Positions 16,593 through 52,650 of a stretch of DNA of 64,000 nt are shown here, piece by piece. The first letter of the stretch is position 1; every line of letters starts with the position of its first letter. The DNA is from Escherichia phage p000v: sequence record NC_055781.1. The stretch is one strand, 5' to 3'. The notes beneath the pieces were generated by a model, which searched no databases, was not told the origin of the DNA, and saw only the letters and a list, made by a program, of their open reading frames with translations. The position numbers were made by a program, and so were the translations under genes.

Positions 16593-17228
16593 ATGAAAAC
16601 TACACCAATCACTATCGCTATTGACGCAATCGTAAAACAAGCTTCATCTCTTGCCACTATGGCTAAAGTAATTAGTCAAAACTCTGCCCGATATAATGCT
16701 ATTCTTGAAACTCTTCGTCGCCCTGGACTGAGTAATTATGAAAGCCGAGTAATTATTACAGGTGTTGGTAAGAACGCTAATATCGCAACTAAAGCTTCCG
16801 AGACTTTTGCTTCACTAGGTATTCCTAGCATGTATTTGAACACCGGGCATTATTCTCATGGCGACGCAGGATTTATTGCACCTAATGATGTATTAGTTCA
16901 CATCAGTCGTTCTGGTAAGACTGAAGAAATGATAGGTGTTGCTAAACATCTTCGTATGATTCGTCCTCAGGTTAAACAGATTCTGTTACATTGTAACCCT
17001 GACATTCCGCAAGAATACGAAGCTCTTTTTGATTATACGTTCTGTACAGGCATCGCGGTAGAGGTTGATGAGAATTCTCTGGCTCCGACCATGTCCACTA
17101 CATTGTTGTTAGCGCTTATCGATACGTTTGCTATCAACCTTTCGTCTGAACGTGGATTTACCTCTAATGACTTCCTTAAGTTCCACCCTGGTGGTGCACT
17201 AGGTGCCATGTTACGAGGCGAACAATGA
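16593..17228 (+). CDS. SIS-domain sugar-phosphate isomerase, arabinose-5-phosphate isomerase-like (KdsD/GutQ N-domain type)
   Basis: 211 aa; VIITGVGKNANIA, HISRSGKTEE and C-terminal HPGGALG motifs typical of A5P isomerases; no CBS domains. Confidence 0.75.
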   Translation: MKTTPITIAIDAIVKQASSLATMAKVISQNSARYNAILETLRRPGLSNYESRVIITGVGKNANIATKASETFASLGIPSMYLNTGHYSHGDAGFIAPNDVLVHISRSGKTEEMIGVAKHLRMIRPQVKQILLHCNPDIPQEYEALFDYTFCTGIAVEVDENSLAPTMSTTLLLALIDTFAINLSSERGFTSNDFLKFHPGGALGAMLRGEQ

Positions 17229-17368
17229 AAGCAATAACAATAGGACTTTTACTATTGATGCTTGTCATGACTATCTACTGGAGCTTAACGGCTCCAGTAA
17301 TGATTCCGACTCTTATAATCGGATGGATTATGATTGGACTACAAGCAAAGTATGAATGCTTTAACTAG
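17225..17368 (+). CDS. small two-helix membrane peptide (47 aa)
   Basis: ATGA overlap with isomerase stop; MKAITIGLLLLMLVMTIYWSLTAPVMIPTLIIGWIMIGL; below ORF-track cutoff. Confidence 0.35.
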   Translation: MKAITIGLLLLMLVMTIYWSLTAPVMIPTLIIGWIMIGLQAKYECFN

Positions 17369-17381
17369 AATAGTGTACAAT
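17357..17381 (+). promoter_or_regulatory. MotA-dependent middle promoter upstream of the nucleotidyltransferase-kinase gene
   Basis: TGCTTTA box, 12-nt spacer, TACAAT -10; 28 nt before the ATG at 17410. Confidence 0.5.
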
Positions 17382-17409
17382 ACACCTACTTACCAATGAG
17401 GACTTCAAC

Positions 17410-19095
17410 ATGAAAAAAGCTGTTATTCTTGGTGCTGGACTGGCAACTCGTTTGTATCCAATAACGCACCATATTCCTAAGGTGCTTGTTAACTATAAAC
17501 AAGACACTATTCTGAGCAATTTGTATACAATTTATTCTGACCTTGGCGCAGATGAAATTATTGTAGTAGTTCATTCAAAATTTGCTGAAACTGTTCGAGC
17601 TTATTGCGAGCAAGAAGGGTTCAATGTGACTATTCGTACAGTTGATGAAGCGTATGGTTCTGCTTATGCTCTTGCTAAATTATACAAAGATTTAGATGGC
17701 CATAACGTAATTGTTAACTGGTGTGATATTATTCCTGACTTTGGTTCATGGTCTTGGAATGTTAACGCAATCTATGTTAAGGGTGATGAATGTCGATATA
17801 ATTTCGATGGTGAAAATATCACTAACGTAGGTTCAACAGGTGGTAATGTTGTAGGAATTTATCAGTTCAAAGACTGGGAATTCTACATGGGTTCTACTGA
17901 TGAGGAAATTCACGAATACTGCAAAGGTCGTGATTTCGTAGAATTCCTTTACGGCAGTGCATTCAATAAATCAGAGCTTATGAATCTAATTGATTTAGGT
18001 GATATGCCTAAACTTGAAAAGGCTCATGAAGTTCGTGAACTGAATCGTAGTTTTAATGCAGTTGAAATTGGCGAAGAAACTGTAACTAAATTCGCGTTAA
18101 CCGAACAAGGTCGAGCTCTTCAAAAAGATGAGATTTCATGGTATTTGAAAGTGAAATCAGATTCAGTTCCTCAGTTAGTTTCGGTAAATGAAAATAATTT
18201 TGAAATGGAACGTATTAAAGGTAAGCCGGCATTTGAATATATTAAATCCAAATCAAGTCTTGCTCGTCCACAAATTGTTGATGCAATTTTAGATGCACTG
18301 AAATTCAGCACGGACACTTATTTTGTAAGTCCTGAAACTGTTCGCCGTGATTTCACTAAAGAGTTCTATACGAAAGTTATTGATCGTTGTGAAAGCATTC
18401 AGCCATTGATTGATTCATTTGGTAAAATCACACGTGTGAACTACACTAAGATTGGACGTCTGAAGCCAATGTTGAAACAAGCTTTAGAACATCTTATTCG
18501 TTATCATAACCGTTCTCAGGGACAGTACTCTGTTATTCATGGTGACCCGAACTTCAGTAATACTATGATTACCGATAACGGCGAAGTCAAGTTTATCGAC
18601 CCTCGTGGATATTTTGGTGAAACCAAGATTTACGGGCCAAAATTGTATGATGAAGCTAAAGTGCTTTATGCTGTTTCAGGTTATGATGAATTCAATGCTA
18701 ATCCGACCTGGGGTCAGTTTACTATTGATGAAACAACTTGTAATGTGACTATTAACATCAATCCATTAGTTTACAAATATGGAAAGATGAGTTCGTTTAA
18801 CGAGTATCATCATTTGGCAGTAGCAATTATCTGGATTGCATTAGGTGGTTATTTCAAGAATAATCCACTTAAAGCGGTTGCCGCATATTATAAAGGTATG
18901 GAACTTCTGACTAAGCAATTACGTAACATGGGCCGTGTACTTCAAGACGGCTCTATTAGTTATGACGTAGCAGAACCTGTAACGGCTACTCTGATTACAA
19001 AAAATCCTGGTAAATGGGTACTAACTGATAAAGAAACTGGTGTTTCCTATCGTCCAATCGGCGGCGATATCACTCATCAATGGGAACGAATCTAA
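17410..19095 (+). CDS. bifunctional sugar-1-phosphate nucleotidyltransferase (N-terminal) / sugar kinase of APH-choline-kinase type (C-terminal)
   Basis: 561 aa; N-terminal KKAVILGAGLATRLYPIT (G-x-G-T-R-L-x-P-x-T nucleotidyltransferase signature); C-terminal HGDPNFSNTMI...IDPRG catalytic-loop-like motifs. Confidence 0.7.
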   Translation: MKKAVILGAGLATRLYPITHHIPKVLVNYKQDTILSNLYTIYSDLGADEIIVVVHSKFAETVRAYCEQEGFNVTIRTVDEAYGSAYALAKLYKDLDGHNVIVNWCDIIPDFGSWSWNVNAIYVKGDECRYNFDGENITNVGSTGGNVVGIYQFKDWEFYMGSTDEEIHEYCKGRDFVEFLYGSAFNKSELMNLIDLGDMPKLEKAHEVRELNRSFNAVEIGEETVTKFALTEQGRALQKDEISWYLKVKSDSVPQLVSVNENNFEMERIKGKPAFEYIKSKSSLARPQIVDAILDALKFSTDTYFVSPETVRRDFTKEFYTKVIDRCESIQPLIDSFGKITRVNYTKIGRLKPMLKQALEHLIRYHNRSQGQYSVIHGDPNFSNTMITDNGEVKFIDPRGYFGETKIYGPKLYDEAKVLYAVSGYDEFNANPTWGQFTIDETTCNVTININPLVYKYGKMSSFNEYHHLAVAIIWIALGGYFKNNPLKAVAAYYKGMELLTKQLRNMGRVLQDGSISYDVAEPVTATLITKNPGKWVLTDKETGVSYRPIGGDITHQWERI

Positions 19096-19481
19096 TGCAC
19101 CGTGTAGAAAACATGCTTAATCTTTGTTTTGATGTCGATGATTGTATAACAGAGTGGAATAACAATCGTGATTACGTGAACTTCAAACCAGACGTCGAAA
19201 TGGTGTCTGCCATTAATGCCCTGTATGATGCAGGGCATACCATAACGCTTTACACTGCCCGTGGTATGAAGTCGGTAGGTCCTGGTCGTATAGCAATTGA
19301 CATTCTCCCAAGTCTGATTCAGAACTTGGAAAACATTGGTTTGAAGTACCATAATTTGCTAACACATAAACCAGTATATGATTGGATTATCGACGACAAA
19401 GCTATGCGTCCTGACGAATTCAAAGCTCTTATGAATAAAGGCGAATTCGAAACATTTAAATCATATAAACCAAATCTATAA
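19095..19481 (+). CDS. small HAD-like phosphatase (putative)
   Basis: about 129 aa from ATG overlapping upstream stop (TAATG); FDVDDCIT resembles HAD motif I, WIIDDK resembles motif IV; capless. Confidence 0.45.
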   Translation: MHRVENMLNLCFDVDDCITEWNNNRDYVNFKPDVEMVSAINALYDAGHTITLYTARGMKSVGPGRIAIDILPSLIQNLENIGLKYHNLLTHKPVYDWIIDDKAMRPDEFKALMNKGEFETFKSYKPNL

Positions 19482-19538
19482 TAATTTAAGTAAGACCTGC
19501 AAAAACCATCGCATCAATTAACGCGAGATGCAAAAAAA

Positions 19539-20699
19539 ATGAATACTTTTAAAATCGGAACGAATTTTGATTTAGCTCTTCTTGATAAAATCGTAGAGCT
19601 CAATAAAACCTATCCTAATAGCTTGATAAACGAAGTATATGGCTCTACAAGAGAAATGGCTTTTGTAGCAGCCAGACCTGATTTTAGGCTTCCTGACGTT
19701 GACAAAAAGATGTTAGAAGACTACGTTAAACGTTGTAACGAATTAGGTATTTGCTTTAACTATACACTCAACACGATAAATCCTGGTTCAAAAAGAGAAC
19801 TAGTTGAGTGGAAGAAGAAAGCTATTCAGGATTATGTTCAGTATCTTTGGTCAATAGGCGTATGGCGTATTACTATCGCTAACCCTGTTGTTATGGAAAT
19901 TGTTCGTGAAGTCAATAAAGATATTGAGATTGAAGTTTCAACAATTCTACATGTCGATGCGGTAACTCAAATCAAATACTTACATGACCAATATAACATC
20001 AAAAAGGTCTGTTGCGGAATTCATAAGAACCGTTCAGTTTCTTTCCTGAAGCGTGCAGCAGAGTTTTGCAATAAGAACAATATAATATTTGAAGTTCTTG
20101 TAAATGAGTTCTGTTCTAATGCTGGTAAAGGGTATACAACACATTGTAGTTATCGTGACTCTTGCTATATTTTCCATAGTACTGATGTTACCGCTGATGA
20201 TGCTAAATCCTTAAATGGATATCCTATGCAGCACTGTATTAAAGCTCGTGATACAGACCCATTTAACTGGTTGAGAACTCGTTTTGTTCGTCCTCAAGAT
20301 TTGAAACTTTATAATGATATTGGTATCACTCAATTCAAAGTTTCAGGACGTACAGGTAGCACAGACTACATTTTGAAAGTTCTTGAAGCATACGCTTCTG
20401 AAAAGTTTGAAGGTAATTTGTTAGAACTGTGGAAGCCTTTAGAGACTATTTTCACTCTTGAAAATGAGACTGAGTTTTCACATACAGTAAATATTGAAAC
20501 CTCTTTGTTAGATGGCTTTTTAGAAAAAAGGTGGTTCAGACATCCAGATTTTGATTGTGCTAATGAAATCTGTGGGTCAACGTGTACATATTGTGAAAGG
20601 TATTATAAACGTCAATTATCTAAAAACGGGTTAGCAGAAAACTCCATATCTATTATTGATATAACTAACTCTGATGACGCTTTGAGGTACCCGGAATGA
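19539..20699 (+). CDS. Cys-rich protein, possible U32-family TIM-barrel/Fe-S enzyme
   Basis: 386 aa; motif order FKIGTNFD, NEVYGS, YTLNT, EVLVNEFCSNAGKGYTTHCSYRDSC resembles peptidase-U32 signatures by eye; C-terminal CANEICGSTCTYC Cys4 cluster. Confidence 0.35.
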   Translation: MNTFKIGTNFDLALLDKIVELNKTYPNSLINEVYGSTREMAFVAARPDFRLPDVDKKMLEDYVKRCNELGICFNYTLNTINPGSKRELVEWKKKAIQDYVQYLWSIGVWRITIANPVVMEIVREVNKDIEIEVSTILHVDAVTQIKYLHDQYNIKKVCCGIHKNRSVSFLKRAAEFCNKNNIIFEVLVNEFCSNAGKGYTTHCSYRDSCYIFHSTDVTADDAKSLNGYPMQHCIKARDTDPFNWLRTRFVRPQDLKLYNDIGITQFKVSGRTGSTDYILKVLEAYASEKFEGNLLELWKPLETIFTLENETEFSHTVNIETSLLDGFLEKRWFRHPDFDCANEICGSTCTYCERYYKRQLSKNGLAENSISIIDITNSDDALRYPE

Positions 20700-20935
20700 T
20701 TTCTAGAAAAAGTTTTAATTATAAACTTAACGAAGAGATTTTGACTATGAAACTGAACACTAACGAACAAATTCTTAAAAAGGCCCTTATGGGCCTGTTT
20801 GAAACCAAAGCGGCTAAAGTGATTAAAGAACCTGTTCAATTGGAATACTACGCTGATGCATTTCTTCATAGTGTTCTTGGAAGTATCGATGCTGAAGCTT
20901 TACGTTATATCAACATTGTCAAGAAATTCAAATAA
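20696..20935 (+). CDS. hypothetical protein
   Basis: 79 aa; ATGA overlap with upstream gene; not hydrophobic, so not Imm-like. Confidence 0.4.
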   Translation: MISRKSFNYKLNEEILTMKLNTNEQILKKALMGLFETKAAKVIKEPVQLEYYADAFLHSVLGSIDAEALRYINIVKKFK

Positions 20936-20958
20936 GCTTTACGAATTGAGTATATAAT
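20935..20958 (+). promoter_or_regulatory. middle-promoter-like element upstream of gene 42
   Basis: AGCTTTA box, 11-nt spacer, TATAAT; 20 nt before the ATG at 20978. Confidence 0.4.
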
Positions 20959-20977
20959 AAATTGTATTGAGGTAAAC

Positions 20978-21694
20978 ATGGGAAAACATAACACAATGAA
21001 ATATATCAAAGCCGCAGATTTTCAAACCGCATTTAAAGCAGTCAATCGTGAAATTTTAGAAAACCCGGAATTCGTAACTGATTCTCGTATTGGACGTTGT
21101 AATGAAATTGGGTCTATGACAGTAGTTGTTGACACTCCATCATCATTCAAAATGACCGACCCACGTATTAACCGCATCTCTTATGAATATGCCGAAGACT
21201 TCTGGAAGTTTATGATTTCTGGTGGTACCAACGCAGAAGAAGCGTTTAAGGCATATCCTAATGTCGCTAAATTTATTTCTAAACCAAAATCAGATGTTTT
21301 GCCGGCGAACTTCAACACTTTCTATGGTCCTCGCATTGCGGCCCAATTACCAACTCTTCTAAAAGAACTTAAAGAGAAGCCTAACTCCCGAAGAGTTGTG
21401 TTCCAAATTCTAGAAAGTTCTGATCAGGCTTTGCTTGATTCGGACGAAACACTTGAATATCCATGTACTGACTCAGTAACTTATTATATTCGTGATGGTA
21501 AGCTTTATACCCACTGTCATATGCGTTCTCAGAACTGTGCTGTTGTTATGCAGTTGGATTTTTATCTCCAAGGAAAATTACTTCATTATATCGCTAACGA
21601 ATGCGGTGTAGAAGTTGGTGATTATACTCATACCATGGTAAGTGCCCATGTGTTTGAACGTGATTTTGATTATGTTAAAGGATTCCTTGACTAA
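20978..21694 (+). CDS. 42: dCMP hydroxymethylase gp42 (thymidylate-synthase fold)
   Basis: 238 aa, close to T4 gp42 length; assigned by position after gene 43 and size; no catalytic motif checked by eye. Confidence 0.85.
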   Translation: MGKHNTMKYIKAADFQTAFKAVNREILENPEFVTDSRIGRCNEIGSMTVVVDTPSSFKMTDPRINRISYEYAEDFWKFMISGGTNAEEAFKAYPNVAKFISKPKSDVLPANFNTFYGPRIAAQLPTLLKELKEKPNSRRVVFQILESSDQALLDSDETLEYPCTDSVTYYIRDGKLYTHCHMRSQNCAVVMQLDFYLQGKLLHYIANECGVEVGDYTHTMVSAHVFERDFDYVKGFLD

Positions 21695-22593
21695 TGGCTA
21701 TTTTCCGCGTACCAATCTTGAGTATGCGGTCTTATGAAACTGGACAGTATGCTATCCTTAAGGATGGCAACTTCCAACTTCATTTGCACCGTGCTAATCC
21801 GGGTGATGTGATTACATATCCACGTAATGCATCTGATATTAAAGAATGCGAACGTCTTTTCCCAGAATTTAAGTTTGTTCCATTATGGTATAAAGATAAC
21901 GCGTATAACACTCGTAAATATTTCTGGACTGAAAATGAATTTGTGGTTGATTCATTAATTGATTATTATGATTGTGATTTTCTAATCACAGATATCACTG
22001 GTTATGGTGGCGCTTTTGATGTGGAATTCAATTTCAATATCACTGCAGACCCTAATAAACCACGTTTTTATATTGATGAATTCTTAAAAACCGACATGTT
22101 GTCTGTTAATCGTTCACTTCAAACTACTGTGTTGAATGAACGTCAAAAAGAAGTGCTGGTTAACGCAGGTGCAGATGGTAATAAGATTATCGTAACGCAG
22201 AAAGTTATACGTCCTTCCATCATGCAGCGTCTTGTAGGTGATTTGGCTCCTATTCATCTAGATGGTATTTTTCATCCATTTCGAATTAGTGACCCATGTT
22301 ATCGTTTTGAACAAGTGGTTGAATGTGCAATTCAATTAGGTCAACCGCTTTATATAACCGATCCAAATAATAGCTTCGACAGAAATAAGTATCCTGAAGA
22401 AGCGCTGATTCGAATTTTTAAACCAACTAAAACTGAGTACTATCAAATTCTTAAAGGACGTCCGAAAATTCAATATTTCGAAAATCCTGAAGAAGTATTC
22501 CATCCAGGTCTTGGTGAGTTCATCTACTTTAATGCTTTAATTTCTTCGCCGTATAATATACCTAAATACGAAGATGTCGTAATCGAGGAATAA
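21694..22593 (+). CDS. hypothetical protein occupying the T4 beta-glucosyltransferase slot
   Basis: 299 aa; TAATG overlap with gene 42 stop; no resemblance to T4 beta-gt seen by eye. Confidence 0.45.
   Translation: MAIFRVPILSMRSYETGQYAILKDGNFQLHLHRANPGDVITYPRNASDIKECERLFPEFKFVPLWYKDNAYNTRKYFWTENEFVVDSLIDYYDCDFLITDITGYGGAFDVEFNFNITADPNKPRFYIDEFLKTDMLSVNRSLQTTVLNERQKEVLVNAGADGNKIIVTQKVIRPSIMQRLVGDLAPIHLDGIFHPFRISDPCYRFEQVVECAIQLGQPLYITDPNNSFDRNKYPEEALIRIFKPTKTEYYQILKGRPKIQYFENPEEVFHPGLGEFIYFNALISSPYNIPKYEDVVIEE
22533..22557 (+). promoter_or_regulatory. MotA-dependent middle promoter inside the 3' end of the 299-aa gene
   Basis: TGCTTTA box, 12-nt spacer, perfect TATAAT; 38 nt before the ATG at 22595. 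Confidence 0.5.
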
Positions 22594-22594
22594 A

Positions 22595-23143
22595 ATGGCT
22601 AAAATTATTTTAGTAGATGGCCCGGATAATGCCGGTAAAACAACTTTCATTAATGACATAATGGAAATTAGTGAAAGATATGTAAAGATTGATTTCCCTA
22701 AACGAACAGTTGATGGACGTTTCGATGTTAAGTCTCGAAATGAAGTTGGCTGTTTCGAAACGATGTTGAATTATTTAGACCCTACTAAGATTTATCTGTT
22801 AGACCGTGGATATATTAGTAACTGGGTTTATGGACGTATTCGACAAGATGCGGACTCGATTCTTGACGTTTATGAACAGGACTATGTTCGTCTTTGCCAA
22901 AACCATGATGTGTTCACAATTATTTTAACACGTAACGAAATGACTGAAAGTTTTGAAGACGACCTTATTACTTTGTCTTCATTCGGTTTTAATACAGTCA
23001 TTTCACATTTTGAAGAGTTTGCAATTCATAACAAAATCCAAACATATCAATTACTTAATCATGATGGTGCTAACAAAGTTATAGGATTTAATGCAAGCGA
23101 ACGTAATGGTTTGATTACAGAAATCATCAAATGGGCTCGTTAA
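22595..23143 (+). CDS. P-loop nucleotide/nucleoside kinase-like protein (thymidylate-kinase-like fold)
   Basis: 182 aa; Walker A VDGPDNAGKTT and DR motif LLDRGYISNWVYG. Confidence 0.55.
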   Translation: MAKIILVDGPDNAGKTTFINDIMEISERYVKIDFPKRTVDGRFDVKSRNEVGCFETMLNYLDPTKIYLLDRGYISNWVYGRIRQDADSILDVYEQDYVRLCQNHDVFTIILTRNEMTESFEDDLITLSSFGFNTVISHFEEFAIHNKIQTYQLLNHDGANKVIGFNASERNGLITEIIKWAR

Positions 23144-23164
23144 GAGCCTGTTTAAAGTTTTAAA

Positions 23165-23189
23165 TGCTGTATAACCCTTAGTATATAAT
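23165..23189 (+). promoter_or_regulatory. middle-promoter-like element upstream of uvsX
   Basis: TGCTGTA box (one mismatch), 12-nt spacer, TATAAT. Confidence 0.4.
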
Positions 23190-23242
23190 CGTTTTATCTT
23201 TTAAACATGAGTAAAATATAATGATGCCTATGGAAAAATACA

Positions 23243-24415
23243 ATGTCTGATTTAAAATCTCGTCTGATTAAAGCTTCTACTTCTAAAATGACTGCAGACT
23301 TGACTAAGTCTAAGCTGTTTAATAATCGTGATGAAGTCCCTACTCGTATTCCGATGTTGAATATTGCACTAGGTGGTGCTCTGAATGCAGGATTGCAATC
23401 AGGCTTGACTATTTTTGCTGCACCTTCTAAACACTTTAAAACGCTGTTTGGACTAACTATGGTTGCAGCGTATATGAAGAAATATAAAGATGCAATCTGT
23501 TTGTTCTATGACTCAGAATTTGGTGCTTCAGAATCTTATTTTCGTTCAATGGGTGTTGATTTAGACCGTGTAGTTCATACACCAATTCAGTCCGTCGAAC
23601 AACTTAAAGTTGATATGACTAATCAGCTTGACGCGATTGAACGCGGTGATAAAGTTATTATCTTTATCGATTCAATCGGTAATACTGCATCTAAGAAAGA
23701 AACCGAAGATGCATTGAATGAGAAAGTCGTAGGTGATATGTCTCGTGCTAAGGCACTTAAATCTCTGTTCCGTATTGTGACCCCGTATCTGACTATTAAA
23801 GATATTCCGTGTGTTGCAATCAACCATACAGCAATGGAAATCGGCGGACTATATCCTAAAGAGATTATGGGTGGTGGTACAGGTATTCTTTATTCTGCCA
23901 ACACGGTATTTTTTATCTCTAAACGTCAGGTTAAAGAAGGTACAGAATTGACCGGTTATGACTTCACGTTGAAAGCAGAAAAATCTCGTACAGTTAAAGA
24001 GAAATCTACTTTCCCGATCACGGTTAATTTCGATGGTGGTATCGACCCATTCAGTGGCTTGCTAGAAATGGCAACTGAAATCGGTTTTGTGGTTAAGCCT
24101 AAAGCTGGTTGGTATGCTCGTGAATTCCTTGACGAAGAAACAGGTGAAATGATTCGTGAAGAAAAATCATGGCGTGCTAAAGCTACTGATTGTGTAGAAT
24201 TCTGGGGACCTTTGTTTAAACACAAACCTTTCCGTGATGCGATTGAAATGAAATATAAGCTAGGCGCTATCTCGTCTATTAAAGAAGTTGATGACGCTGT
24301 TAACGACCTTATTAATTGCAAAGCAACAACTAAAGTTCCGGTTAAAGCTTCTGATGCTCCGTCTGCAGCAGATATAGAAAACGACCTTGACGAAATGGAA
24401 GATTTCGATGAATAA
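23243..24415 (+). CDS. uvsX: RecA-like recombinase UvsX
   Basis: 390 aa; N-terminus MSDLKSRLIKASTSK matches T4 UvsX as recalled; RecA-fold ATPase. Confidence 0.95.
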   Translation: MSDLKSRLIKASTSKMTADLTKSKLFNNRDEVPTRIPMLNIALGGALNAGLQSGLTIFAAPSKHFKTLFGLTMVAAYMKKYKDAICLFYDSEFGASESYFRSMGVDLDRVVHTPIQSVEQLKVDMTNQLDAIERGDKVIIFIDSIGNTASKKETEDALNEKVVGDMSRAKALKSLFRIVTPYLTIKDIPCVAINHTAMEIGGLYPKEIMGGGTGILYSANTVFFISKRQVKEGTELTGYDFTLKAEKSRTVKEKSTFPITVNFDGGIDPFSGLLEMATEIGFVVKPKAGWYAREFLDEETGEMIREEKSWRAKATDCVEFWGPLFKHKPFRDAIEMKYKLGAISSIKEVDDAVNDLINCKATTKVPVKASDAPSAADIENDLDEMEDFDE

Positions 24416-40728: not shown

Positions 40729-40746
40729 GGGCTTCGGCCCTTTTTG
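40728..40746 (+). terminator. intrinsic terminator (AGGGC-ttcg-GCCCT then TTTTT)
   Basis: UUCG hairpin and T-run upstream of gene 39. Confidence 0.6.
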
Positions 40747-40791
40747 CTTTAGATTTCGGATGATAGAATACCTTCATAACGAGGAGACAAC

Positions 40792-42612
40792 ATGATTAAA
40801 AATGAAATTAAGGTATTGTCGGATGTAGAACATATTAAGAAACGTAGTGGCATGTATATTGGTTCTTCTGCTAAAGAAGCCCACGAGCGTTTTTTGTTTG
40901 GTAAATATCAACAAGTTGAATATGTTCCTGGTCTGGTTAAATTAATCGATGAGATTATTGACAACTCGGTTGATGAAGCTATTCGTACATCATTTAAGTT
41001 TGCAAATAAAATTGATGTGCAAATTAAAAATAATCAAGTTTCGGTGGAAGATAACGGACGTGGTATTCCTCAAGGTTTAGTTACCGACCAAACAGGTGAA
41101 CAAATTCCTGGGCCTGTAGCAGCCTGGACTATTCCAAAGGCCGGTGGTAACTTTGGTGATGACTCTGAACGTAAGACTGGTGGTATGAACGGCGTCGGGA
41201 GTAGTTTAACTAATATCTTCTCTACGTTGTTTACAGGCATCACGTCAGATGGCGAAAATGAAATCACTGTTAACTGTTCAAACGGAATGGAAAACAAATC
41301 ATGGTCTTCTAAGAAATCTAAAGGTAAAGGCACTAAAGTAATCTTCACTCCTGATTTCACTTCATTTGAAGAGCATAATTTATCTCAAATTTATTTAGAT
41401 ATTACTTTAGACCGACTTCAAACATTGGCAGTCGTTTATCCTGATATCAAGTTCACATTTAATGGTAAAAAGGTCGATGGTAATTTTAAACGATTTGCTA
41501 AACAATTTGGTGAAGATAACATCATTCAAGAAAATGATAAAGTCTCTATAGCATTCACAACATCACCAGATGGCTTCCGTCATTTAACTTATGTGAATAA
41601 CATCCATACTAAAAATGGTGGACATCATGTTGAATGTGTAATGGACGATATCTGCGAACATCTTTTGCCGGGTATTAAAAAGAAATATAAGGGTATTGAA
41701 GTCACTAAAGCTCGTGTTAAAGAATGTCTCACAATGTTGATGTTTATTAGAGACATGAGCAACATGCGTTTTGATTCTCAGACTAAAGAACGTTTAACGT
41801 CAACGTACGGTGATATTCGTAATCATATCCAATTAGATGCTAAGAAAATTGCTCAGGCACTTCTTAAAAATGAAGCCTTGATTATGCCTATTGTTGAAGC
41901 AGCATTAGCTCGTAAATTGGCGGCAGAAAAGGCTGCAGAAACTAAAGCAGCTAAAAAGGCAACTAAAGCTAAGGTTCATAAGCATATTAAAGCTAACCAA
42001 TGTGGTAAAGATGCAGATACGACATTGTTTTTAACAGAAGGTGATTCGGCAATTGGATATCTCATTGATGTTCGTGACCGTGAACTACATGGTGGATTCC
42101 CATTACGTGGTAAGGTGATGAATAGCTGGGGTATGTCATATGCTGATATGATGAAGAACAAAGAGCTCTTTGATATCTGTGCTATCACGGGTCTTATTCT
42201 TGGTGAAAAAGCAGAGAATACGAACTATCGTAATATTGCAATTATGACCGATGCCGATCATGACGGCCTTGGAAGTATTTATCCTGCTTTGCTTGCTTTC
42301 TTTAGTAATTGGCCTGAATTGTTTGAACAAGGACGTATTCGCTTTGTTAAAACACCTGTAATTATTGCACAAATTGGCAAAACTCAAAAATGGTTTTATA
42401 CTGTAGCTGAGTATGAAGAAGTTAAAGATACACTGCCTAAGCATAGTATTCGATACATCAAGGGATTGGGCTCACTTCAGCGGGATGAATATAAAGAAAT
42501 GATTCAAAACCCTGTGTACGACGTAGTTAAACTTCCTGAAAATTGGAAAGAACTATTTGAAATGCTCATGGGTAACGACCCTGAACTCCGTAAAGATTGG
42601 ATGCTAGGATAA
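40792..42612 (+). CDS. 39: DNA topoisomerase II large subunit gp39 (GyrB-like), uninterrupted
   Basis: 606 aa; GHKL ATPase region (IDEIIDNSVDEA) and TOPRIM (LFLTEGDSA, IMTDADHDG); no split into 39 and 60. Confidence 0.9.
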   Translation: MIKNEIKVLSDVEHIKKRSGMYIGSSAKEAHERFLFGKYQQVEYVPGLVKLIDEIIDNSVDEAIRTSFKFANKIDVQIKNNQVSVEDNGRGIPQGLVTDQTGEQIPGPVAAWTIPKAGGNFGDDSERKTGGMNGVGSSLTNIFSTLFTGITSDGENEITVNCSNGMENKSWSSKKSKGKGTKVIFTPDFTSFEEHNLSQIYLDITLDRLQTLAVVYPDIKFTFNGKKVDGNFKRFAKQFGEDNIIQENDKVSIAFTTSPDGFRHLTYVNNIHTKNGGHHVECVMDDICEHLLPGIKKKYKGIEVTKARVKECLTMLMFIRDMSNMRFDSQTKERLTSTYGDIRNHIQLDAKKIAQALLKNEALIMPIVEAALARKLAAEKAAETKAAKKATKAKVHKHIKANQCGKDADTTLFLTEGDSAIGYLIDVRDRELHGGFPLRGKVMNSWGMSYADMMKNKELFDICAITGLILGEKAENTNYRNIAIMTDADHDGLGSIYPALLAFFSNWPELFEQGRIRFVKTPVIIAQIGKTQKWFYTVAEYEEVKDTLPKHSIRYIKGLGSLQRDEYKEMIQNPVYDVVKLPENWKELFEMLMGNDPELRKDWMLG

Positions 42613-43409
42613 TGAATTATCGTAAAATTTATGATAAACTTATCGCTGCGGCTAAAAACCGCAGCACTATTCCTAATTATACTGAAACTCACCATATTTT
42701 GCCTAAATCTATGGGTGGGAGTAATGCTAAATCAAATCTAGTTAAAATGACCCCTAGAGAGCATTTTATCGCCCATTTATTGCTTTATAAAATTCATAAG
42801 AACCGTTCTATGCTTATGGCTATTAGAGCTTTTTACATGGGAGCTAGAAATTCTAGAGATTATGATTGGCTTAAACAAGAATTCTCTAAAGAGCACTCTA
42901 GATTTATGAAAGAATGGATTGCTAAAAATGGCAACCCATTTAAAGGTAAAAAACATACTAAAGCAACAAGAGAATTAATGTCACATATTGCTTCACAACG
43001 TATAGGCGAATTAAATCCGTTTTATGGTAAAACTCATACGCAAGAAGCAATAGATAAAATAATACAGGCCAACAAGTTATCTTGGGAGAATGGGCGAAAA
43101 GCACCTGTAAAAACAAAAGAACACCAGGATAAAATAACTAAATCAAGAATGGAAACATTTAAAACAAAAGGATTTAAACCATACACTCCTAGGTCGGAAG
43201 AAACTAAAGCTAAGACTAGAGAGTTGTATAAATCTAAATATGAAAGAAGGCCTATAAGAATCACAAGTGTAAAAACAGGTGAAACTATTGATTTTAACTA
43301 TCTTTATGAATTAAGGGAGTATTTAGGTATAGGGTCTTCTAATATATTGAAAGCATTAAATAATCCTAACAGAACCTGCAAAGGTTATAAAATGTGTTGG
43401 ATGTCCTAA
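42612..43409 (+). CDS. HNH homing endonuclease with NUMOD3 repeats (freestanding mobile gene)
   Basis: HNH motif ETHHILPKSMGGSNAKSNLVKMTPREH; repeats NPFKGKKHTKATRE and NPFYGKTHTQEAIDKI; ATG overlaps gene 39 stop. Confidence 0.8.
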   Translation: MNYRKIYDKLIAAAKNRSTIPNYTETHHILPKSMGGSNAKSNLVKMTPREHFIAHLLLYKIHKNRSMLMAIRAFYMGARNSRDYDWLKQEFSKEHSRFMKEWIAKNGNPFKGKKHTKATRELMSHIASQRIGELNPFYGKTHTQEAIDKIIQANKLSWENGRKAPVKTKEHQDKITKSRMETFKTKGFKPYTPRSEETKAKTRELYKSKYERRPIRITSVKTGETIDFNYLYELREYLGIGSSNILKALNNPNRTCKGYKMCWMS

Positions 43410-43451: not shown

Positions 43452-44552
43452 ATGAAAGTTATGTTTATCCCATCTCGCGCAGTCCCATTTAACCCAGAAC
43501 GTGTACAAGGTGGTCTTGAAGCAGTACATTTAAATGTATTGAAATATCTTGTGTCCATCGGTGCTGATATTGATTATATCGGCTTTGATAATGACACGTT
43601 TGGTGACTGGAAGGTTAATCATCATCCTGTTGGTCATCTGACTAAATTCAGTCTAGGTATGAGTTATACTATGGCTCGTAAGATTGTTGAACTAGCCGGC
43701 ATCCATGAATACGATTTTGTTGTTACTATGGAACCGACTAAACTAACCGTTCAGGCAATTAAAGACGCAGGTCTCTCTAAAGTTCATAAGAATTTTATGG
43801 CAACACCATTTGAACCGGTATCTCGTGGCATTGTTCAAATTTGGGACCAGACTATTCAAATTCATAAGAATGGTGGTAAGAGTTATGCTCCTACTAAAGC
43901 CTTCCGTGAATTTGAACGCAAATATTGTTATATGACTTCAGGTCTGACTGACAAAATTGATTATGATTATTGGCGAGCAAATCCGTTGTTTGAAGCCGAA
44001 GATTATCCGGTTATTTGTTTGACTGAAAAGCCAGAAGTTCTTCCGGCGACGGATCTGATTATTAGTGCACAACGTTATGACACTAAAATGCGTCGTACTG
44101 ATGTTGCTCTTGAAGCGATTAAAGCACTAGGCGAAAATGGTGCAGGATACTGTCCTAGTAAATGGGCACCACCAGCTAAATATCCTGTTATTATTGATGC
44201 TCCACACAGCGAAATCATGGAACGTCTTAAAACAGCTAAAGCACTTATCAATACGTGTCCTGACACGGGTACGGTAGAGAATAGTTCTATTGAAGCCATC
44301 TCTAAAGGTGTCCCTGTGATTCAGTTAGTTTTTAAGGATTATCCGCACGCGACATTCGAATATGACCCAGATACTGTGCGTGTAGAAATTGATTCCTCTA
44401 CTCCTAAGAAAGAAGTAGTTGCGCTTTACACAAAAGCTGTATTAGAATTCACTGACACATACGAAGCTCGAGTTAAACGTGCTGAAGCAGTATGGAAGAA
44501 GTATAACCGAGATGCAGTTGTTGCGATGTGGGATAAAATCTTCACAGCGTAA
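43452..44552 (+). CDS. GT-B fold glycosyltransferase (GT4-like), candidate DNA hydroxymethylcytosine arabinosyltransferase
   Basis: 366 aa; N-terminal MKVMFIPS...GGLEAVHLNVLKYL and C-terminal TGTVENSSIEAISKGVPVIQ resemble the GT4 E-x7-E/PVI motif. Confidence 0.65.
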   Translation: MKVMFIPSRAVPFNPERVQGGLEAVHLNVLKYLVSIGADIDYIGFDNDTFGDWKVNHHPVGHLTKFSLGMSYTMARKIVELAGIHEYDFVVTMEPTKLTVQAIKDAGLSKVHKNFMATPFEPVSRGIVQIWDQTIQIHKNGGKSYAPTKAFREFERKYCYMTSGLTDKIDYDYWRANPLFEAEDYPVICLTEKPEVLPATDLIISAQRYDTKMRRTDVALEAIKALGENGAGYCPSKWAPPAKYPVIIDAPHSEIMERLKTAKALINTCPDTGTVENSSIEAISKGVPVIQLVFKDYPHATFEYDPDTVRVEIDSSTPKKEVVALYTKAVLEFTDTYEARVKRAEAVWKKYNRDAVVAMWDKIFTA

Positions 44553-52017: not shown

Positions 52018-52650
52018 ATGTCTAAAGTTACTTACATCATCAAAGCTTCTGAAAACGCTCTGAATGAAAAAACTGCTGCAATAATGGTTTATATCATTAA
52101 GAACAACTTCACCACTGCTGCCAATGTCCGTGAAGCTCTGGAAGCAGAATACAATGCATCAGTTGTTAACTCTAACATCGGTGTATTGATTAAGAAAGGT
52201 TTAGTCGAAAAATCAGGTGATGGACTTGTAGCAACAGGCGAAGCAATGGATATTATCCAAAAAGCCGCAGATCTATTTGCTCAAGAAAATGCTCCAGAAC
52301 TTCTTCAGAAACGTAACACTAGAAAAGCACGTGGAGTTACTCCTGAAATGCATGAATTAGCAAACTTTGTTTTTGAAAATATTAAAGATAAAGTTGAAGT
52401 TAAAGAAATTGGTGAAAACCGTAGTAACTTAGAAGTTCGATTTGCAAAACGAGTTCTAGGTATTCGTCAGATCGAAATTCGTCGAGATGGCGCTCTTAGA
52501 ATCTTTGCATACAACATGTCAGAAACTGAATCAAAGCTGTTTACTTCTCTTGAAAATGATGTTAAGATTAAGATCGGTGGTAAATATACTTACATTGACT
52601 TCCCTAATGTGTCCAAAGAAATCATTACCCTTGTAACTAACGTACTGTGA
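52018..52650 (+). CDS. motA: middle-transcription activator MotA
   Basis: 210 aa (T4 MotA is 211); N-terminus MSKVTYIIKAS and SNIGVLIKKGLVEKSGDGL match T4 MotA as recalled. Confidence 0.8.
   Translation: MSKVTYIIKASENALNEKTAAIMVYIIKNNFTTAANVREALEAEYNASVVNSNIGVLIKKGLVEKSGDGLVATGEAMDIIQKAADLFAQENAPELLQKRNTRKARGVTPEMHELANFVFENIKDKVEVKEIGENRSNLEVRFAKRVLGIRQIEIRRDGALRIFAYNMSETESKLFTSLENDVKIKIGGKYTYIDFPNVSKEIITLVTNVL

Follow-up and report, generated by a model that had tools for sequence, protein, structure and literature searches.

A predicted arabinosyltransferase and a thymidylate-kinase-fold protein close the arabinosyl-5-hydroxycytosine gene cluster of Escherichia phage p000v

The DNA of phage RB69 contains mono- and di-arabinosylated 5-hydroxycytosine (5hoC), and not arabinosylated 5-hydroxymethylcytosine (hmC) (Lee et al., NAR 2026, PMC13326640). 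DNA with arabinosyl-5-hydroxycytosine protects many coliphages that are candidates for therapy, as well as Acinetobacter phages, against restriction enzymes and certain CRISPR systems. In RB69, the ThyA homologue gp48 was demonstrated experimentally to be a flavin-binding synthase of 5-hydroxy-deoxycytidine monophosphate (5-hydroxy-dCMP); gp46:47 is a single open reading frame (ORF) with a GT-B fold in its model, proposed as ‘arabinosyltransferase 1’, and gp45 is a ‘nucleotide kinase’ with structural matches to thymidylate kinase (PMC13326640). Here we describe the orthologues of gp46:47 and gp45, hereafter GT1 (299 amino acids, aa) and the kinase (182 aa), in a 64,000-nucleotide stretch of Escherichia phage p000v (NC_055781.1), which as a whole is called the window. 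They are the least characterised obligatory members of the pathway, and their substrates would tell whether the first sugar precedes or follows replication, as well as give the minimal gene set in vitro, i.e. synthase, kinase, transferase and sugar donor.

Other published results bear on this question. RB69 gp159, a homologue of T4 gp1, turns 5-hydroxy-dCMP into its diphosphate in vitro and is enough for this step in E. coli; when the synthase and gp159 were expressed alone, 5-hydroxy-dCTP was made and incorporated (PMC13326640). In phage DLP3 the third arabinose is added on DNA, while the DLP3 transferases, supplied one at a time with uridine diphosphate (UDP)-arabinofuranose or UDP-arabinopyranose and 5hoC-DNA, were inactive (data not shown in that paper), and whether the first arabinose is attached to the mononucleotide or to DNA could not be distinguished (PMC13326640). 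Phage Thanatos is mono-arabinosylated and has a single glycosyltransferase, syntenic with gp46:47 (PMC13326640).

The window phage is a Mosigvirus. Its 1450-bp region with GT1 and the kinase is 99.6% identical to Escherichia phage p000y, and about 150 Mosigvirus records contain it at ≥95% identity; the kinase and its RB69 orthologue share 98.4% identity. The initial annotation, made from the sequence, had called both genes unknown, although RB69 gp46:47 and gp45 were given the same folds and roles in 2026 (PMC13326640). The finding is therefore real but largely known, its predicted functions having been published in 2025-2026. New here are the co-inheritance counts for transferase, kinase and synthase, the phyletic contrast between GT1 and a second transferase, GT2, and the assessment of an internal promoter. 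Both ORFs lie on the plus strand with the positions and lengths first given for them:

20978-21694, plus strand: 5-hydroxy-dCMP synthase, a thymidylate-synthase homologue and RB69 gp48 orthologue (Pfam Thymidylat_synt 1.9e-15; MRSQN)
21694-22593, plus strand: GT1, 299-aa ORF, GT-B (GT4-like) glycosyltransferase, RB69 gp46:47 orthologue; predicted first (base-proximal) arabinofuranosyltransferase on 5-hydroxycytosine
22585-22589, plus strand: GAGGA, putative Shine-Dalgarno of the kinase, as read from the sequence
22595-23143, plus strand: kinase, 182-aa ORF, thymidylate-kinase-fold nucleoside-monophosphate (NMP) kinase, RB69 gp45 orthologue
23243-24415: uvsX, downstream neighbour of the kinase gene

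GT1 and the kinase are the final two genes of the arabinosylation cluster of the window (16593-23143), and the pair indeed occupies the slot of beta-gt in T4, where the order is uvsX-segA-b-gt-42. The stop codon of the synthase overlaps the GT1 start codon (TAATG) and a single base separates the GT1 stop from the kinase ATG; the three genes would be translationally coupled and transcribed in the middle mode from upstream. The gene upstream of GT1 had been taken for 42 (dCMP hydroxymethylase) and the modified base for hmC. The gene is rather a 5-hydroxy-dCMP synthase and the actual base 5-hydroxycytosine (PMC13326640): the window enzyme has the diagnostic MRSQN, with Asn at the position of E. 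coli ThyA D169, where T4 gp42 has MRSND. It is almost identical to the HY126 enzyme, whose structure has been solved (9iqc/9ir2, E 2.9e-160; the HY126 synthase is also available as 9iqu), and the same Asn is found in five distant linked synthases.

At the sequence level, the statement that the 299-aa ORF has no recognisable motif holds: GT1 gave no match in Pfam, NCBIfam or PDB (the last also searched by profile), and its sole match in PHROGs is PHROG 3891, of unknown function. Its 136 homologues go down to 36% identity. Comparison of structures and profiles gave a GT-B fold for the 299-aa protein and a thymidylate-kinase-like fold for the 182-aa protein. GT1 has two Rossmann-like domains with a cleft between them, and its structural neighbours (figures of the comparison in brackets) are sucrose-phosphate synthase 6kih (17.7), BshA (16.7) and PimA (15.7), followed by the HY126 phage glycosyltransferase 9iqz (14.5) and T4 alpha-glucosyltransferase (13.2). 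The best of them, i.e. sucrose-phosphate synthase and enzymes of the MshA/BshA type, act on small phosphorylated acceptors. In the C-terminal half F193-P195-F196-R197-D200, K246 and H270-P271-G272 are invariant, and the canonical E-x7-E is not present; R12, K23, R33 and R74 are invariant too. By its fold, GT1 is a minimal GT-B/GT4 glycosyltransferase with a predicted activity; this and its orthology to gp46:47 bear out the early suggestion that one of the two genes encodes a transferase of the arabinosylation pathway, a role that stays predicted.

The PDB contained a structure of neither the 299-aa protein nor the kinase. With 97-99% identity, the BFVD model RB69ORF047c (182 aa) matches the N-terminal part of GT1 and RB69ORF046c (116 aa) the C-terminal part; the gene that the RB69 reference shows in two pieces is thus intact in GT1. 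Protein charge was considered as a proxy for DNA binding and given up: GT1 has an isoelectric point (pI) of 5.1 (family median 5.2) and T4 beta-glucosyltransferase one of 9.05, but T4 alpha-glucosyltransferase is acidic as well (pI 6.1), so charge does not discriminate. Public annotation of the GT1 gene varies, mostly being ‘hypothetical protein’, with ‘RNA polymerase binding protein’ in several records.

The kinase bears both motifs that had been read in it, a Walker A sequence and a DR motif of the thymidylate kinase (TMK) kind:

22619-22645, plus strand: Walker A / TMK-type P-loop GPDNAGKTT, residues 9-17, with D11 as the acidic residue typical of TMKs
22802-22807, plus strand: D70-R71, the TMK ‘DR(Y/H)’ motif, invariant in family alignments and aligned to GDRH of Tmk

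A profile of 58 kinase sequences, collected by searching 1.8 billion representatives, aligned to E. coli Tmk with 82.6% probability over the P-loop (VDGPDNAGKTT with IEGLEGAGKTT), an FP(K)/FT(R) stretch and the DR motif (LDRGYISNWVY with GDRHDLSTQAY), which agrees with the initial view of a P-loop kinase resembling thymidylate kinase; with a shallower profile set against the single Tmk and T4 gp1 sequences, the P-loop alone was aligned. Residues G9, D11, G14, K15 and T16 are invariant across the family. The fold of the 182-aa protein is that of an NMP kinase, nearest to the TMKs, and the protein has both the (E/D)Gx(D/E)GxGK(S/T)T P-loop and the DR(Y/H) motif. The window kinase has no match to PF02223 (Thymidylate_kin) at E≤0.1 and scores 15.9 bits against TIGR00041, whose cut-off is 83; four of six relatives touch PF02223 at sub-threshold to marginal level. 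The thymine-reading Arg of Tmk (in FYAAR) has no counterpart: an ungapped reading gives F54...L58, with L58 invariant, and hhalign leaves the segment unaligned. On that ungapped reading, the missing counterpart of the Arg that contacts thymine O4 argues against a plain thymidylate (dTMP) kinase, the name by which many database records label the protein.

Two further roles had been proposed for the kinase at the outset. That of a sugar kinase is unlikely, because the 561-aa bifunctional enzyme of the cluster already provides this step (PMC13326640). Action on modified nucleotides has the best support among the kinase roles proposed; the family is confined to phages with the 5hoC pathway.

Some kinase relatives have a fused HhH-GPD DNA glycosylase domain of the MBD4 type at the C terminus (L018 6001-7074, L020 127-1092, the L numbers denoting individual loci). 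The fusion proteins P0179, P0180, P0185, P0187, P0189, P0196 and P0231 match MBD4 of the PDB by profile (E 2e-21) and keep the catalytic G-x-G-K-Y-x-x-D-S-Y; in another relative, P0251, the fusion partner is a UDG-superfamily domain. The L018 fusion gene has genes for a ThyA homologue and a flavin reductase and genes of the arabinose pathway as neighbours, and a GT1-like gene comes after the one in L020. These fusions might serve phage repair of deaminated 5-hydroxycytosine, i.e. 5-hydroxyuracil opposite G. A search for an MBD4-like domain in the window found none. The glycosylase fusions also raised the idea of a DNA-base kinase similar to the 5-hydroxymethyl-deoxyuridine (5-hmdU) DNA kinase, 5-HMUDK; it was rejected as the principal reading, as the fused domain is of the MBD4 type and not an aGPT-Pplase, and there were no Pfam matches to HMUDK.

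The distribution of the two families ties them to the synthase. A tblastn search of 50,697 phage records detected GT1 in 347 of them and the kinase in 342, both having the same spread of hosts, and the GT1 family occurs in every phage with the synthase (347 records). The kinase family is confined to phages with the 5hoC module, always lies inside it, and is absent from T4 and the T4-type hmC phages. The order synthase-GT1-kinase with overlapping stops and starts is found in Kanagawavirus, Winklervirus, Kagamiyamavirus and Tegunavirus, while in Dhakavirus it is kinase-synthase-GT1. The trio is adjacent in divergent metagenomic phages too, including contigs of 216 kb and 356 kb, and the downstream proteins of the metagenomic loci retain the kinase-invariant residues. 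In a scan of IMG/VR that gave 59 loci, the kinase lay within 4 kb in 50, and in all 44 of the loci with GT1 of at least 33% identity and sufficient flank; the synthase was found in 52, with the Asn signature in 49 of these. Kinase-GT1 pairs with no synthase within 4 kb also occur (L069, L071, L072, L074), as do minimal modules, L004 and L016, without sugar-activation genes in the retrieved flanks. The window itself carries the 5-hydroxycytosine glycosylation module, an Asn-type ThyA homologue adjoining GT1 and the kinase.

Distant phages often also have flavin reductase genes (Flavodoxin_2 or FMN_red) beside the Asn-type ThyA homologue or within about 6 kb of it (L004 4715-5275, L016 6739-7293, L017 1-523, L018 7068-7613), in L004 and L016 as a compact reductase-synthase-GT1-kinase operon; no such gene was noted in the window cluster. 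These neighbours fit the reported flavin-dependent hydroxylation. In two jumbo-phage contigs (L002 7600-8010, L017 9818-10201) a gene with a YAcAr (SLOG-family) domain stands at or just past the 3' end of the kinase, in L017 with one 47-aa ORF in between, with a gene for dCMP deaminase some 0.75-1.5 kb downstream of it.

The second transferase of the window is distributed differently from GT1:

43452-44552, plus strand: GT2, 366-aa GT4-like glycosyltransferase, RB69 gp3 orthologue; predicted second arabinosyltransferase

GT2, near-identical to the HY126 glycosyltransferase of structures 9iqz/9ir0 (E 2e-248), occurs in just 210 phage records, nearly all of Mosigvirus or Acinetobacter phages, the latter with two copies; RB69 and DLP3, for which two or three arabinoses have been reported, belong to these groups. 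Only the 299-aa type is present in Klebsiella, Serratia, Enterobacter and Proteus phages, in the Dhakaviruses and in Thanatos. As GT1 accompanies every synthase, whereas GT2 belongs mainly to Mosigvirus and Acinetobacter phages and the mono-arabinosylated Thanatos has GT1 only, GT1 is probably the first, base-proximal transferase.

Based on these observations, we suggest that the kinase phosphorylates a modified pyrimidine deoxynucleoside monophosphate (dNMP), that GT1 adds the first arabinose, probably on DNA, and that GT2 extends the chain, a joint reading to which we assign a probability of about 0.55. The ThyA-homologue synthase would convert dCMP into 5-hydroxy-dCMP, a step experimentally shown for RB69 and HY126, and the kinase, as we infer, would turn 5-hydroxy-dCMP or a derivative of it into the diphosphate, which would enter the deoxynucleoside triphosphate (dNTP) pool. 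GT1 would link the first arabinose, from UDP-arabinofuranose made by the upstream genes, to the 5-hydroxyl of the base; both this donor and this acceptor are predicted. By analogy with T-even glucosylation, the transfer would most likely take place on replicated DNA. GT2 would attach the second arabinose, and a MotA-type site inside GT1 may supply the kinase with an extra promoter. The upstream genes are as follows:

16593-17228, plus strand: arabinose-5-P isomerase (NCBIfam KpsF/KdsD 8.5e-32, and Pfam); role in UDP-arabinofuranose supply from PMC13326640
17410-19095, plus strand: bifunctional nucleotidyltransferase/kinase, 561 aa (NCBIfam nucleotidyltransferase matches, and Pfam); role from PMC13326640
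19080-19481, plus strand: HAD phosphatase (NCBIfam capsule-biosynthesis phosphatase 1.9e-13, and Pfam); role in UDP-arabinofuranose supply from PMC13326640

Several published results weigh against this scheme. The DLP3 transferases were singly inactive on 5hoC-DNA (data not shown), and since RB69 gp159 already converts 5-hydroxy-dCMP into the diphosphate, a second kinase looks redundant (PMC13326640). The Thanatos homologue TH1_063, 47.8% identical to GT1, was reported to form UDP-xylose from UTP and xylose-1-phosphate (PMC12838424). The enzymatic activities of GT1 and the kinase are, moreover, predicted and not demonstrated in PMC13326640.

The alternative that best withstands the evidence, though in our opinion it is unlikely, places the first transfer before replication: GT1 would act on 5-hydroxy-dCMP, the TMK-like kinase would handle the bulky arabinosyl-5-hydroxy-dCMP, on the premise that a gp1-type dNMP kinase is unable to take it, the resulting dNTP would be polymerised, and later sugars would be added on DNA. 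Such a scheme accounts for a strictly co-inherited second NMP kinase beside a gp1 homologue that is active on 5-hydroxy-dCMP; the usual gene order synthase-GT1-kinase, with its overlapping stops and starts, parallels the order of reactions, although Dhakavirus departs from it, and the pair persists where the synthase is missing within 4 kb. The small phosphorylated acceptors of the best structural neighbours of GT1 point in the same direction. Free 5-hydroxycytosine in DNA is a mutagenic lesion excised by host glycosylases, so that avoiding it would pay. The inactivity of the single DLP3 transferases on 5hoC-DNA is also consistent with an earlier stage of transfer, which the publication leaves open (PMC13326640); however, this negative in vitro result is unpublished, and a wrong donor anomer or an absent partner could explain it. 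On the other hand, pre-replicative transfer is without precedent, all characterised phage DNA glycosylation being post-replicative, the third DLP3 arabinose is attached on DNA, and 5-hydroxy-dCTP was formed and incorporated with the synthase and gp159 only (PMC13326640). Charge is of no help, GT1 and T4 alpha-glucosyltransferase both being acidic. The full form of this proposal, in which the pair performs pre-replicative glycosylation with a dedicated arabinosyl-5-hydroxy-dCMP kinase and the glycosylated dNTP is incorporated by the phage polymerase, seems to us more improbable still. If true, it would be the first sugar-bearing nucleotide polymerised into a natural genome, and bare, mutagenic 5-hydroxycytosine would never need to be exposed in DNA.

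It is doubtful that GT1 is the chain-extending enzyme and the 366-aa enzyme makes the first transfer, which was the main option of the initial annotation (a ‘second transferase for poly-arabinosylation’). Both proteins are of the GT-B fold, and the HY126 transferase that was crystallised is the 366-aa one (9iqz/9ir0), which suggests that this is the one found active. However, the 366-aa family is missing from most phages with the synthase, GT1 and the kinase (210 records, against 347 for GT1 with the synthase), and in mono-arabinosylated Thanatos the single glycosyltransferase is the one syntenic with gp46:47 (PMC13326640), so that GT1 is more likely the first transferase.

We see little chance of the kinase being a plain dTMP kinase, or a dNMP kinase for general back-up, unconnected to the modification. 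It does have the fold and motifs of thymidylate kinases, and many database records name it so, but the family is confined to phages with the 5hoC module, where its gene is always inside the module, T4-type hmC phages lack it, the family-invariant L58 stands where Tmk has the Arg for thymine O4 (ungapped reading), and the scores of the kinase fall below the Pfam and NCBIfam thresholds for TMK.

Finally, it is very improbable that GT1 is a UDP-pentose pyrophosphorylase making the sugar donor, as suggested by its homologue TH1_063 (47.8% identity), which gave UDP-xylose from UTP and xylose-1-phosphate in vitro as detected by liquid chromatography-tandem mass spectrometry (PMC12838424), since the fold of GT1 is GT-B and not that of a nucleotidyltransferase, such a domain is already present in the 561-aa enzyme, whose HY126 orthologue AfhE is reported as a UDP-arabinose pyrophosphorylase (PMC13326640), the Thanatos transfer assays used acceptors lacking 5hoC, which makes their negative outcome uninformative (PMC12838424), and the GT1 family also occurs in the minimal modules without sugar-activation genes in the retrieved flanks.

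The possible additional promoter of the kinase and the activator on which it would depend are:

22533-22557, plus strand: MotA box TGCTTTA, 12-nt spacer and TATAAT, middle-promoter-like, inside the 3' end of GT1 and 38 nt upstream of the kinase ATG
52018-52650, plus strand: MotA, activator required for MotA-box promoters (Pfam MotA_activ 2.4e-39, MotCF 2.2e-08)

Internal middle promoters are typical of T4-like genomes. The sequence TAATGCTTTA-N12-TATAAT (22530-22557) agrees with the extended consensus (a/t)(a/t)TGCTT(t/c)A, 11-13 nt, TAnnnT. Across the window TGCTTYA-N11-13-TANNNT was found 14 times against 1.73 expected (8-fold), a number reached in 0 of 100 shuffles, and MotA-type sites as a class are therefore not due to chance; similar ones stand upstream of the 561-aa gene (17357-17381) and gene 39 (40745-40769). 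The site inside GT1 is kept in Mosigvirus and in Tegunavirus fHe-Yen9-01, and is absent from three of the five T4-like genera checked (Winklervirus, Kagamiyamavirus and Kanagawavirus); its conservation is hard to interpret because it falls in coding sequence (F-N-A-L...Y-N). A scan of 20500-23600 for sigma-70-type promoters and terminators gave promoters at background level and no terminators. Given the MotA gene of the phage and the 8-fold enrichment of such motifs, a predicted internal middle promoter for the kinase is plausible. Of the initial claim, the box and TATAAT exist as described, while the statement that they would drive the kinase comes down to a match to the consensus, and three of the five genera lack the site. 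A near-consensus site with one box mismatch, TGCTGTA-N12-TATAAT (23165-23189, plus strand), lies between genes just upstream of uvsX.

Other features of the surroundings were recorded. The cluster includes a U32-family protein (19539-20699, plus strand; Pfam Peptidase_U32 7.3e-11) with a weak NCBIfam match to the anaerobic hydroxylase UbiU (E 9e-4). U32 enzymes (RlhA, TrhP, UbiU/V) are O2-independent hydroxylases, some of which produce 5-hydroxy-C and 5-hydroxy-U in RNA, while a ThyA-type synthase needs O2; for this reason the gene could be a candidate anaerobic path to 5-hydroxycytosine. Lee et al. labelled it merely ‘sugar or heterocycle reductase’ (PMC13326640). At 42597-43409 (plus strand), upstream of GT2, an ORF of 270 aa has an HNH-like motif (ETHHILPKSMGGSN...REHF); it overlaps the gene for the topoisomerase large subunit (40792-42612) at its end and probably encodes a homing endonuclease. 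In Kosakonia phage 305 (L007 932-1591) a homing endonuclease gene stands between the synthase and GT1, reminiscent of segA beside b-gt in T4, and judging by these two cases the slot appears to be a repeated target of mobile endonucleases. Neighbouring genes are mislabelled in databases, the HAD phosphatase often as ‘phosphoheptose isomerase’ and the 5-hydroxy-dCMP synthase as ‘dCMP hydroxymethylase’.

Among the known systems, RB69 gp46:47 with gp45 and DLP3 gp79 with gp78 (PMC13326640) show no substantive difference from the window pair, apart from the RB69 reference, where a sequencing error splits the transferase that is a single 299-aa ORF in the window. In Shewanella phage Thanatos, the GT1 homologue TH1_063 adjoins the ThyA homologue TH1_062, and its reported activity as a UDP-xylose pyrophosphorylase in vitro (PMC12838424) conflicts with the GT-B fold and the role proposed here for GT1. 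Compared with Tmk (PF02223), the window kinase is sub-threshold, has no counterpart of the thymine-reading Arg (ungapped reading) and is limited to 5hoC phages. The dNMP kinase T4 gp1 and RB69 gp159 are likewise phage NMP kinases in a modified-cytosine pathway, gp159 phosphorylating 5-hydroxy-dCMP. Neither the window kinase nor its fusion relatives have a Pfam match to 5-HMUDK of the thymidine-hypermodifying phages or to aGPT-Pplase. 5-HMUDK, said to have been described by Lee et al. in PNAS in 2018, is reportedly a P-loop kinase of 5-hmdU in DNA, its gene lying next to that of a thymidylate-synthase homologue within a base-hypermodification cluster; that pathway is unlike the 5hoC module, in which O-glycosylation from a UDP-sugar requires no phosphorylated acceptor, and the likeness was not adopted. 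The beta- and alpha-glucosyltransferases of T4 share no detectable sequence similarity with GT1, which is smaller (299 aa) and, in contrast to the basic beta enzyme, acidic. They transfer glucose to a hydroxymethyl group, whereas GT1 is predicted to transfer arabinofuranose to the 5-hydroxyl of the ring, forming an ether.

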